Below are positions 1-63,218 of a DNA stretch of 64,000 nt, in pieces (the stretch's first letter is position 1; every line of letters starts with the position of its first letter). The DNA comes from Escherichia coli (lineage in GTDB: Bacteria > Pseudomonadota > Gammaproteobacteria > Enterobacterales > Enterobacteriaceae): NCBI RefSeq assembly GCF_050320075.1, contig NZ_CP190018.1, one strand, 5' to 3'. A program made the translations under genes and the position numbers. The notes under the pieces are model-generated. The model saw nothing but the letters and a program-made list of their open reading frames with translations, made no database searches and was not told the origin of the DNA.

Positions 1-813
1 CGTGCTGGCTACGTCCATCGCGACATCACCGCCGCCGATAATTAATGCGCTTTGTGGAATGCTGATATCGCCTTGCGCCTGTCGTGCACGTTGCAAGAAG
101 TCGACGGCAATCTCAACGTCGCTATGCTCAAACAGTGGTAGCCCCGAACCGCTCGATAACCCCACGGTGACCAGTACCGCGCGGTTTTCCGCTTTCAGCT
201 GATCCAGGGTAAATGTGTTACCGATTTCGTTATTGCACTTAATGGTCACGCCCATTTTTTCAATACGGGCGATTTCTGCATCCAGTACTGATTGCGGTAA
301 CCGGAATTGCGGAATGCCGTTACGCAACCAGCCACCGGGTTGTGCTTCTTTCTCATAGATCGTGACGTCATAACCCTGGTTTGTCAGCGTCACACTGGCC
401 TGCAATCCGGCAGGACCTGCGCCAATAATGGCGACTTTGCCGAGCGTTTTAGTACCGGGCTGATAAATTTCCATCCCAGTTTGTTGTTCAAAATCAGTAA
501 CAAAACGCTGTAAGCGACCGATATCAATGGGAGTATCAACACCGGCACGGGTACAACCGCTTTGGCATAATTTCTCCGTCGGGCACACTCTGGCACAAAC
601 GGCACCGAGGGCATTATTTTCGCGAATTGTCTCGGCAGCGCCTTTAAAATTACGAAAGTAGATTGAGCGAATAAATTTCCCCGGATCGGTCTGTGCCGGG
701 CAAGCCTGACTACAGGGGGCGTCATGGCATAATAAACAGCGAGAGGCTTCTTTAATCGCCAGTAACGGTGTAAAAGCCGGAGTGAGTTCATCCAGATAAT
801 TTTGTTGCGGCAT
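1..813 (-). CDS. preT: NAD-dependent dihydropyrimidine dehydrogenase subunit PreT (YeiT), N-terminal 271 codons; gene continues beyond window start
   Basis: Reverse-strand translation from ATG at 811-813 reads MPQQNYLDELTPAFTPLLAIKEASRCLLCHDAPCSQACP... with Cys-rich ferredoxin-like motifs and GAGPAG dinucleotide-binding motif; frame open to position 1. Confidence 0.9.
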   Translation of the reverse strand, partial: MPQQNYLDELTPAFTPLLAIKEASRCLLCHDAPCSQACPAQTDPGKFIRSIYFRNFKGAAETIRENNALGAVCARVCPTEKLCQSGCTRAGVDTPIDIGRLQRFVTDFEQQTGMEIYQPGTKTLGKVAIIGAGPAGLQASVTLTNQGYDVTIYEKEAQPGGWLRNGIPQFRLPQSVLDAEIARIEKMGVTIKCNNEIGNTFTLDQLKAENRAVLVTVGLSSGSGLPLFEHSDVEIAVDFLQRARQAQGDISIPQSALIIGGGDVAMDVAST

Positions 814-849
814 GTGATCTTCCTTAATGCTATGAGTAATTAAGGCGAA

Positions 850-1068
850 CGCTAAATATACTCGTCATACTTCAAGTTGCATGTGCTGCGTCTGCGGGTT
901 ATTCGGCCCATCCATGGGCCTCACCCCTTATGGGGCCGCTGCAGGCAGCGTTCAAATCCGCTCCATGCGGATTTGTCGCTCACCCCAGTCACTTACTTAT
1001 GTAAGCTCCTGGGGACTCTCTCACTTGTCGCCTTCCTGCAACTCGAATTATTTAGAGTATAAATATTG
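850..1068. repeat. ERIC/IRU-type imperfect palindromic intergenic repeat
   Basis: 977-998 is the exact reverse complement of AAGTAAGTGACTGGGGTGAGCG (ERIC2 primer sequence, from memory); adjacent 999-1015 matches ATGTAAGCTCCTGGGGA; flanks form a long imperfect palindrome; boundaries approximate. Confidence 0.6.
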
Positions 1069-1229
1069 CGTGCTGATATTAAGGCTATGCGCGTGGGGAA
1101 ATTTAAACTGTGAAAGGATTCACAAATAGCTGTGGTTCAGAATGTTATATCCGCAGCTTATTGAGTGAAGTAATAATTATTCTCAATAATTAACAGAAAA
1201 GAGAAAATATTAACGATAGAAAATAAGAT

Positions 1230-1238
1230 AAACAATCA
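1230..1238. repeat. Left copy of 9-bp target-site duplication AAACAATCA flanking IS1
   Basis: Identical 9-mer directly abuts both IS1 ends (1230-1238 and 2007-2015). Confidence 0.9.
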
Positions 1239-2004: not shown

Positions 2005-3982
<1,978 letters not shown>

Positions 3983-10783: not shown

Positions 10784-10956
10784 AAAGTTCTTTGACGTTG
10801 CATTGCTGGCGTAAATGTCAGCAATGCAGCATTTCCTCACGATTCTCCTTTGACGATCGCACTTTTTGCTCGTTATGATGGCGTCGCTAGCCTCAGTAAA
10901 TCCTTACTCCGGCGGTGCGCAACCCGTGCGCGTGAACCACTATCTGAATGCTCATC

Positions 10957-31222: not shown

Positions 31223-31338
31223 ATATTCATCCCTGAAATGTATTAATGAAATAAACGATATTTTACGCGCAATAAATGTTTGGCGCATTAGTTGTTTGAG
31301 CGAAAAATATCTGGAAAGCAGATCACAGTAAATAAAAA

Positions 31339-31365
31339 AACCTGCTGGTGAGGCAGGTTCTTTTA
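31339..31365 (-). terminator. Hairpin flanked by A7 (left) and T4 (right); reads as strong intrinsic terminator for minus-strand transcripts
   Basis: AAAAAAACCTGCTGGTGAGGCAGGTTCTTTT; rc gives stem followed by U7. Confidence 0.5.
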
Positions 31366-31445
31366 TTTACTATTTTCAGGCCCAACACCGCAGCCTGTGC
31401 AACATCGTGTTCCAACGAACGAATTATAACCATCGGTGGACCCCG

Positions 31446-54469: not shown

Positions 54470-54600
54470 ATCAAACGACTCGGGGTGCCCTTCTGCGTGA
54501 AGGCTGAGAAATACCCGTATCACCTGATCTGGATAATGCCAGCGTAGGGAAGTCACGGACCACCAGGTCATTGCTTCTTCACGTTATGGCAGGAGCAAAC
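54470..54600 (+). promoter_or_regulatory. TPP (thiamine pyrophosphate) riboswitch, thiM leader
   Basis: Conserved THI-box elements GGGGTGCCC...CTGAGA...ACCTGATCTGGATAATGCCAGCGTAGGGAA immediately upstream of thiM RBS. Confidence 0.8.
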
Positions 54601-62505: not shown

Positions 62506-63218
62506 GCACAGAAAACCCCCAGCTAGGCTGGGGGTTCCGGAAAGCTTTCAGCTTTGAGCCAGTTATTCAAACCCCTTTTGATTTGTTAAAACACCTTGCG
62601 GTCTGGCAACTGCAAGTGTCAAACAAGAAATCAAAAGGGGGTCCCAATGGGGGACGAAAAGAGCTTAGCGCACACCCGCTGGAACTGTAAATATCACATA
62701 GTTTTTGCGCCGAAATACCGAAGACTGGCGTTTTACGGAGAGAAGCGTAGGGCGATAGGCAGTATTTTGAGAAAGCTGTGTGAGTGGAAAAGCGTACGGA
62801 TTCTGGAAGCAGAGTGCCGCGCAGATCATATCCATATGCTTGTGGAAATCCCACCCAAAATGAGCGTATCCGGCTTTATGGGATATCTGAAAGGGAAAAG
62901 CAGTCTGATGCTTTACGAGCAGTTTGGGGATTTGAAATTCAAATACAGAAACAGGGAGTTCTGGTGCCGAGGGTACTATGTCGATACGGTGGGTAAGAAC
63001 ACGGCGAAGATACAGGACTACATAAAGCACCAGCTTGAAGAGGATAAAATGGGGGAGCAGTTATCGATTCCATATCCGGGCAGCCCGTTTACGGGCCGTA
63101 AGTAACGAAGTTGAATGCAAATGTCAGATCGTATGCGCCTGTTAGGGCGCGGCTGGTAACAGAGCCTTACAGGCGCATTTGAAAAACCTCCGGCTATGCC
63201 GGAGGATATTTATTGCCT
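62506..63218 (+). mobile_element. IS200-like (IS200/IS605 family) insertion element; ends approximate
   Basis: Single Y1 transposase gene flanked by subterminal hairpins CCCCCAGC-TAG-GCTGGGGG (62516-62534) and CCTCCGGC-TAT-GCCGGAGG (63187-63205); second stem-loop 62571-62642 sequesters tnpA RBS. Confidence 0.7.
62647..63105 (+). CDS. tnpA: IS200 transposase TnpA (HUH Y1 transposase)
   Basis: 152-aa MGDEKSLAHTRWNCKYHIVFAPKYRRLAFYGEKRRAIGSILRKLCEWKSVRILEAECRADHIHMLVEIPP... with HuH motif HIHML and catalytic Tyr region. Confidence 0.9.
   Translation: MGDEKSLAHTRWNCKYHIVFAPKYRRLAFYGEKRRAIGSILRKLCEWKSVRILEAECRADHIHMLVEIPPKMSVSGFMGYLKGKSSLMLYEQFGDLKFKYRNREFWCRGYYVDTVGKNTAKIQDYIKHQLEEDKMGEQLSIPYPGSPFTGRK

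Follow-up and report, generated by a model that had tools for sequence, protein, structure and literature searches.

The spacer between yeiS and preT in the Escherichia coli DNA analyzed here, a stretch of 64,000 nucleotides referred to as the window, harbors a complete 'long' ERIC/IRU element of 205 bp on the minus strand (857-1061, both terminal TA dinucleotides included), as established from primer sites, the published consensus, comparison of filled and empty sites, and the fold. The element is a composite of a 127-bp ERIC and a 79-nt module nested within it, an anatomy that a first-pass annotation of the same sequence had not described. We consider it highly probable that this is a non-autonomous, non-coding repeat that probably acts on the processing or stability of the flanking mRNA. 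ERIC, also designated IRU or RU-1 (Sharples & Lloyd 1990; Hulton et al. 1991), is an ordinary and long-known repeat, and the finding of such a copy is itself already known; the four-hairpin block that emerged as a by-product could matter more.

The exact matches to the ERIC core reported in the first-pass annotation are borne out by the 22-mer of the ERIC2 primer, which agrees at 22 of 22 positions (977-998, minus strand), though the ERIC1R primer agrees at 20 of 22 (999-1020, plus strand). The 64-kb window contains no further match to either primer, and 100 shuffles produced none. The two primer sites are carried by the core hairpin, in which 983-996 pairs with 1001-1014; primer sites, inverted repeats and consensus alignment together place the central core and the yeiS-proximal arm at 976-1061 on the minus strand. 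The preT-proximal arm, placed by consensus alignment at 857-896 on the same strand, pairs with 1037-1061 as the terminal inverted repeat, which is 25 nt long and 80% complementary (857-881 with 1037-1061). When positions 897-975 are set aside, the element can be aligned end to end both with the Wilson-Sharp consensus for E. coli, 127 nt in length (114/123, 92.7%), and with a Salmonella reference copy (116/126, 92.1%), as given in Table 1a of Delihas 2007 (PMC2759123). The identification had been tied to the quality of the alignment beyond the 22-mer core, and since the ERIC aligns end to end outside it, the assignment stands. The minus strand of the window corresponds to the Wilson-Sharp consensus strand and is the sense strand of yeiS and preT. 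Rfam contains no ERIC family, and its sole match over the element is a sub-threshold one to AaHKsRNA22.

The location between preT and the junction of IS1 with yeiS, as first described, also proved correct. The preT start codon lies at 811-813 on the minus strand according to the open reading frame and annotation, the yeiS stop codon of uninterrupted strains maps by strain comparison to 1210-1212 on the same strand, and a complete IS1 of 768 bp occupies 1239-2006 between direct repeats at 1230-1238 and 2007-2015. Both genes are co-oriented with their sense on the minus strand, and the ERIC situated between them is separated by 43 nt from the preT start downstream of it and by 148 nt from the original yeiS stop upstream. 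IS1 has entered yeiS within its last codons, duplicating a 9-bp target (aaacaatca) and leaving a YeiS of 74 amino acids that ends in MIVW, as compared with the uninterrupted 79 amino acids ending in MIVYLIFYR; a search of 5,426 complete E. coli genomes did not turn up this exact IS1/yeiS junction. The originally proposed span of 850-1068 does contain the ERIC, but its limits were drawn too wide, the TA-bounded element being 857-1061.

These limits are fixed by strains that lack the element, and the site turns out to be an insertion polymorphism absent from K-12, a point that had previously gone unmentioned. A megablast search with 780-1239 against 5,426 complete E. coli genomes located the site in 5,425 and revealed three length classes, of each of which one representative was aligned. 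The empty site reads GCTAAA-TA-AATATT in strains 10671, BL21 and K-12, with a yeiS-preT spacer of 193 nt in K-12 MG1655. Strain YDC107 carries a 125-bp insertion with TA on both sides, which is the canonical 127-bp ERIC, and strain M217 is identical to the window (780-1238, 100%) and has 78 bases more than YDC107, all inside the ERIC. The window copy accordingly comprises 201 bp between two TA dinucleotides, the first (857-858) and second (1060-1061) copies of the duplicated target, where the empty site has a single TA. An ERIC is present at this site in 2,178 of the 5,425 genomes, exactly 231 of which have the long form as judged by a junction-spanning query, so that roughly 60% of the sites are empty, 36% hold the short ERIC and 4% the long one. 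The window query hit a median of six megablast places per E. coli genome.

The properties expected of the family are thus shared by this copy: the core, the terminal inverted repeats, the TA termini with their duplication, the intergenic position between co-oriented genes, a predicted long-hairpin RNA fold, and presence or absence among strains. ERICs are described as MITEs with terminal inverted repeats and TA termini that duplicate a TA target and are co-transcribed with their neighbors (PMC2229807, PMC3184786; also PMC10969869). Unlike the 127-bp family standard, the window copy measures 205 bp because of the 79-nt block at 897-975, and K-12 has no copy here at all. Locus-specific ERIC variants (GGGGACTC) are common to the short and long alleles at preT, which argues that both derive from one insertion event; in one E. 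coli/Shigella lineage, the ERIC inserted into the spacer between yeiS and preT at a TA. The ERIC-PCR target at this site is missing from most E. coli.

Transcription of the element on the minus strand is probable because it lies between co-oriented genes and 43 nt before the preT start, and it would then form part of the preT leader or of a yeiS-preT intercistronic RNA. Folding of the transcript, a check that the first-pass annotation had proposed, predicts a very stable structure for the sense strand (-91.3 kcal/mol, z = -8.9), in which the terminal arms pair as the outer stem, with the core hairpin and four additional hairpins branching off within it. The short allele is predicted to fold with -53 kcal/mol (z = -8.1), and the ERIC domain is retained in the prediction when the whole 411-nt spacer is folded. 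A transcribed copy would therefore present a long terminal stem enclosing the core hairpin and the four extra hairpins. Reviews dealing with Yersinia portray ERICs as mobile-like structured RNA elements able to affect mRNA stability, which are co-transcribed and act on the upstream mRNA in an orientation-dependent manner via RNase E; as these reviews relate the work of De Gregorio et al. 2005, one orientation exposes an RNase E site and destabilizes the upstream message (PMC2229807, PMC3184786, PMC10969869). By analogy, the present copy may change how the flanking mRNA is processed and how stable it is, rather than serving as a promoter or terminator, and a polymorphism 43 nt from the preT start could alter expression of the pyrimidine-degradation operon between strains.

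A serious rival, if on balance a less probable one, is that the element is a neutral genomic parasite with the same ERIC anatomy, the fold of which serves only its own spread and has no effect on preT or yeiS. The element is dispensable and may be neutral, given that about 60% of complete E. coli genomes, K-12 and BL21 among them, have the empty site; the three allelic states coexist side by side with no visible change in the flanking genes, and ERIC copies are scarce in E. coli by comparison with Yersinia or Photorhabdus (PMC10969869). A total lack of effect would nevertheless be surprising because of the proximity to preT and a predicted structure of -91 kcal/mol in any RNA that crosses the element, and Yersinia ERICs are reported in the reviews to shift flanking mRNA levels measurably (PMC2229807, PMC3184786, PMC10969869). 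We favor an element that probably acts on the flanking mRNA, with co-transcription and a regulatory effect of this particular copy being suggested by its position and by the Yersinia precedent.

A sigma-70 consensus scan of 700-2300 gave no convincing promoter or terminator for preT, and hence no signal that would assign the element to a particular UTR. IS1, located 170 nt upstream of the ERIC, would further have cut the element off from sanA-yeiS transcription. In the same stretch, a promoter-like site at 1252-1225 on the minus strand combines a -35 hexamer TTGGCA in the IS1 end with a -10 hexamer TATCTT in the flank and points through the ERIC to preT; it is a consensus match only (9/12), and could be a hybrid promoter created by IS1.

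Two plus-strand open reading frames, one of 61 codons lying wholly inside the repeat (877-1062) and one of 82 codons starting in it (881-1129), had been dismissed as artefacts of the repeat, and our results agree. Neither has a match in Pfam or NCBIfam, the NCBI pipeline places no CDS at either of them in the sequence-identical strain M217, and they are the two open frames of the ERIC consensus (PMC2759123), the frame at 877-1062 being the 'RU-1f' translation of that consensus plus 26 codons contributed by the insert. Both frames stay open across the insert because its net gain of 78 nt equals 26 codons, and ERIC-derived frames have been found fused into annotated genes of other enterobacteria (Delihas 2007, PMC2759123), which could be taken to mean that one or both encode real small proteins. 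This is very unlikely, however, as both frames run antisense to the two neighboring genes, are missing from 60% of strains, and have no promoter-like site upstream on the plus strand of the scanned stretch. Nor is frame preservation a general property, since other copies have blocks of 74 to 85 nt. Two spurious open reading frames can thus be removed from consideration.

The 79-nt block (897-975, minus strand) is absent from the short allele and interrupts the preT-proximal arm of the ERIC. Folded alone, it is predicted to form four hairpins (-40.4 kcal/mol, z = -5.2). A covariance model built in this analysis and including the window copy, hereafter R1, scores it at 91.5 bits (E = 1e-21, span 899-978) and finds no other copy in the window. 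The block occurs at 94-100% identity in 645 E. coli genomes, and each further locus inspected (the topB-hsp70 spacer, the yajO-dxs spacer and a site adjoining yehK) has it within an ERIC, with position and orientation unchanged. Large Salmonella plasmids likewise carry a long ERIC, 85% identical and including the module, in their yersiniabactin island (HPI), where it occupies the region of the divergent ybtA and ybtP promoters (locus L010, 1501-1703), again at the same site and in the same orientation as at the four E. coli loci. Differences between copies are compensatory within the four short hairpins.

Inserts of about 70 bp at specific internal ERIC sites were reportedly described by Sharp in 1997 (Mol Microbiol 24:1314) and by Cromie, Collins & Leach in the same year (24:1311). 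The references of PMC3696847 include two pertinent titles, 'Insertions within ERIC sequences' as well as 'Sequence interruptions in enterobacterial repeated elements...'. Such ERICs would have in common with the window copy a block of roughly 70-80 nt at a fixed internal position and an RNA that remains well folded; here the same block occupies the same site in several copies. Given that internal ERIC insertions have been cited since the 1990s, the anatomy of a 'long ERIC' is to be regarded as already known.

The E. coli long ERICs at four loci and the Salmonella HPI copy have a junction peculiarity in common, namely two extra bases (GCG-GG/AG-TT|A(T/C)TCGG) in comparison with Serratia, and this shared feature suggests descent from one long-ERIC master copy. 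On this basis, the block might be an integral part of a 'long ERIC' subfamily that transposed as a unit, with the short/long polymorphism at preT arising by gene conversion, for which the variants shared by the preT alleles, pointing to a single ERIC insertion, would also speak. We regard this as unlikely to be the whole explanation. The block is found at three ERIC sites, here termed A, B (E. albertii) and C (Budvicia), and in both orientations relative to the ERIC. One E. albertii ERIC harbors two blocks at different internal sites, site B among them (locus L014, 5768-6037), and a Dickeya/Pectobacterium-type ERIC in a viral contig harbors three (locus L137, 7990-8288). The block is moreover present without an ERIC in about 30 of the 124 pattern matches listed, and in the rrnA and rrnB trailers of K-12. 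Transposition as a unit and a separate module are compatible ideas, as the copies suggest that the block inserted once, long ago, and then spread as part of a long ERIC; the short and long alleles at preT could accordingly differ by gene conversion from another long ERIC rather than through insertion of the block there.

The wider distribution was surveyed with a pattern derived from the block center, by which one genome per species was scanned, yielding at least 120 loci and 124 distinct matches listed. Among these listed matches, 82 lie between ERIC arms (in Serratia, Pectobacterium, Dickeya, Brenneria, Citrobacter and E. albertii), 8 are chance-like, and 34 are clear copies without those arms, 4 of the latter being located in Budvicia ERICs, where the block sits at a different site and in the opposite orientation. 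Several of the remaining copies are associated with genes for stable RNAs. In tRNA 3' fragments, the block splits the T-loop of a partial tRNA copy (GGTTCG, block, AATCC); such split copies were seen in Mariprofundus, in SAR92 and in several proteobacterial MAGs (loci L012, L013, L022, L083, L085, L086, L115 and L122), each preceded at a distance of 63-87 nt by an intact tRNA gene. Two MAGs (loci L117 and L127) have the block within the D-loop of a 5' fragment of tRNA-Ser, with the intact gene following immediately, and in two Enterobacteriaceae it adjoins the final bases of a 5S rRNA sequence that lies downstream of the true 5S gene. A further MAG contains the block in head-to-tail tandem arrays. 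Phage-like contigs also carry it, with one copy apparently located between two genes; a scan of viral contigs gave five loci and no autonomous version of the block.

As a separate observation, a tRNA fragment split by the module at about 60-90 nt from an intact gene of the same kind recurs in distant Proteobacteria. An intron in a working tRNA gene was also considered and rejected: after in silico removal of the block with 25 offset combinations at 15 loci, ARAGORN never predicted a tRNA across the junction, and the tRNA hosts of the block are gene fragments beside intact genes.

A more sensitive BLAST search with the block returned partial matches in 3,931 E. coli genomes, with at most three per K-12 genome, and those of K-12 lie behind rRNA operons. 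In rrnA and rrnB of K-12, the 5S gene is followed by T1 and, after a short spacer, by the four-hairpin module; next come 18 nt that duplicate the 3' end of 5S, and finally T2. R1 matches this module with 69.2 bits, in rrnB at NC_000913.3 4171836-4171912 (locus L133, 337-413) and in rrnA at locus L132, 400-476. The rrnB T1-T2 module thus shares the four hairpins with the window copy, the stem of hairpin 1 being identical in the two, but it is not embedded in an ERIC and is followed by the 18-nt 5S copy and T2. Conservation of the T1-T2 spacer at 93-98% across Escherichia, Salmonella, Klebsiella and Citrobacter suggests that the module is vertically inherited here rather than polymorphic. The rrnB spacer is part of the T1T2 cassette of many cloning vectors, and full or partial matches to it at 100% identity are found in small laboratory plasmids from unrelated hosts.

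A further connection is to Rfam. The window copy scores 28.6 bits (E = 0.021) against family RF02902, AaHKsRNA22, at 864-984 on the minus strand, which is below the gathering score of 39.8. The family passes its threshold on copies from Aggregatibacter kilianii (63-87 bits), a proteobacterial MAG (43.1) and Mariprofundus (40.3), all of which R1 joins to the window copy, and it is because of these above-threshold matches that we regard AaHKsRNA22 and the ERIC block as the same kind of sequence. The order of the four hairpins and the linkers (UUUGAACG, CGGCCCC...GGGG, GA) are common to both, whereas the stem sequences are wholly different, the window score is sub-threshold, and five Aggregatibacter copies lie inside rnfC. 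The latter, in A. kilianii, follow the coding strand and reading frame of rnfC, and most belong to a 225-nt C-terminal tandem repeat (locus L091, 2682-5465; AaHKsRNA22 at 44-80 bits), which suggests that this Rfam 'sRNA' represents a repeat dispersed in genomes and capable of being translated. Its name apparently goes back to the Aggregatibacter sRNA catalogue of Oogai et al. 2017 (PMC5909427), the main text of which contains neither the name AaHKsRNA22 nor mention of a repeat, and a full-text literature search for 'AaHKsRNA22' found nothing. Homology between the window copy and this family is supported by the R1 score of 91.5 bits, given by a model that contains the window copy. Taken together, these data lend good support to a link that joins the insertion in ERIC with the spacer between the rrnB terminators, the sites in tRNA fragments and the Rfam 'sRNA'.

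The structure of the module was evaluated in an alignment of 66 distinct copies, in which hairpin 3 and two linkers are fixed by the search pattern. Double-sided changes were seen in 18 of 27 proposed pairs (179 cells), a level reached in none of 500 shuffles and compared with 16-28 cells in controls with slid partners; because the copies are related, the shuffle control overstates the significance and the slid controls are fairer. The same four hairpins were obtained independently with RNAalifold. Stem 4 contains tandem G.A/A.G pairs in 49 of the 66 copies and Watson-Crick pairs instead in a few lineages, and its closing pair alternates between C-G and U-A. Wobble pairs favor the ACAAA... strand over its complement by 40 to 18. 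This is the putative transcribed strand in the window and in the tRNA-3'-trailer, 5S and rnfC contexts checked, but not at topB nor in all Aliidiomarina copies.

The loops of hairpins 1 and 4 in the window copy each contain AUGGA (about 960-964 and 911-914, respectively). Among the 66 copies, GGA is found in the loop of hairpin 1 in 38 and of hairpin 4 in 39, with both loops having it in 36 copies and only one in 5, and the copies with both span lineages as distant as Mariprofundus and E. coli. A GGA in the loops of two nearby hairpins is the arrangement of CsrA/RsmA-type binding sites, which the window module resembles at the level of sequence; the resemblance is only a lead, as the pairing of GGA loops may merely reflect relatedness of the copies.

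Where its junctions can be read, the block starts with ACAAA and in most copies ends with GAGT or GAAT; it follows a G and in most cases precedes an A (CG|AA or GG|AA), with no target duplication. The T-loop junction reads TTCG|AATCC, the ERIC junctions GAGCG|AACGC, GCAGG|AAGGCG and CCCG|AATCAC, and the 5S-fragment junction GTAGG|AACTGCC. Some copies join the left flank of one site to the right flank of another and look like recombinants without the ERIC core. An integron attC-like site was rejected by reasoning, since the block junctions are G|A and not G|TT. The boxC repeat, first defined downstream of fabI (envM), was rejected as well, as the best R1 score across the fabI-yciW region of K-12 is 6 bits, which amounts to no match. 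A kinship with IS200/IS605-type miniature elements (PATE) was also considered; these are expected to have subterminal hairpins, no inverted repeats, no target duplication, an insertion point beside a fixed short target, and a TnpA partner. The block shows no target duplication, and its junctions follow a G and mostly precede an A; its hairpins, however, reach right up to its termini, where guide sequences would have no space. Rickettsia (RPE) and Neisseria (Correia/NEMIS) also have small structured repeats, which are tolerated in transcribed and even coding sequence and are processed as RNA (PMC2229807, PMC10969869); the block has no sequence relationship to them, and in contrast has neither terminal inverted repeats nor a target duplication.

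We tentatively put forward, as a proposal that is more likely to fail than to hold in all its parts, that the block is an old, structure-constrained, self-inserting module of stable-RNA trailers, that ERIC is one of its carriers, that it belongs to one family with AaHKsRNA22, a unification hitherto undescribed, and that it is possibly a protein-binding RNA with two GGA-loop sites. Its usual home would be the T1-T2 spacer of rrnA and rrnB, and elsewhere tRNA and 5S fragments beside the intact gene. The module would enter after a G, usually at CG|AA or GG|AA, without duplicating its target, may have invaded ERIC at no fewer than three sites as well as a phage intergenic region and the Aggregatibacter rnfC, and would act as a single-stranded nucleic acid. 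If the block is an independent module, a structured and conserved element is present in the rrnB T1T2 cassette of many vectors, what Rfam lists as an 'sRNA' is in fact a repeat with dispersed copies, and the ERIC insertions, known for so long, have their origin accounted for.

Some further structured sequences were noted elsewhere in the window. A REP-like hairpin in the cdd-sanA spacer (3060-3097) scores 31.4 bits against Rfam naRNA4, below the threshold of 59.5, and the other above-threshold Rfam matches are a Peptidase-S11 motif (10872-10952), an OrzO-P antitoxin RNA (31334-31409), a TPP riboswitch (54471-54567) and STnc490 (62514-62637).
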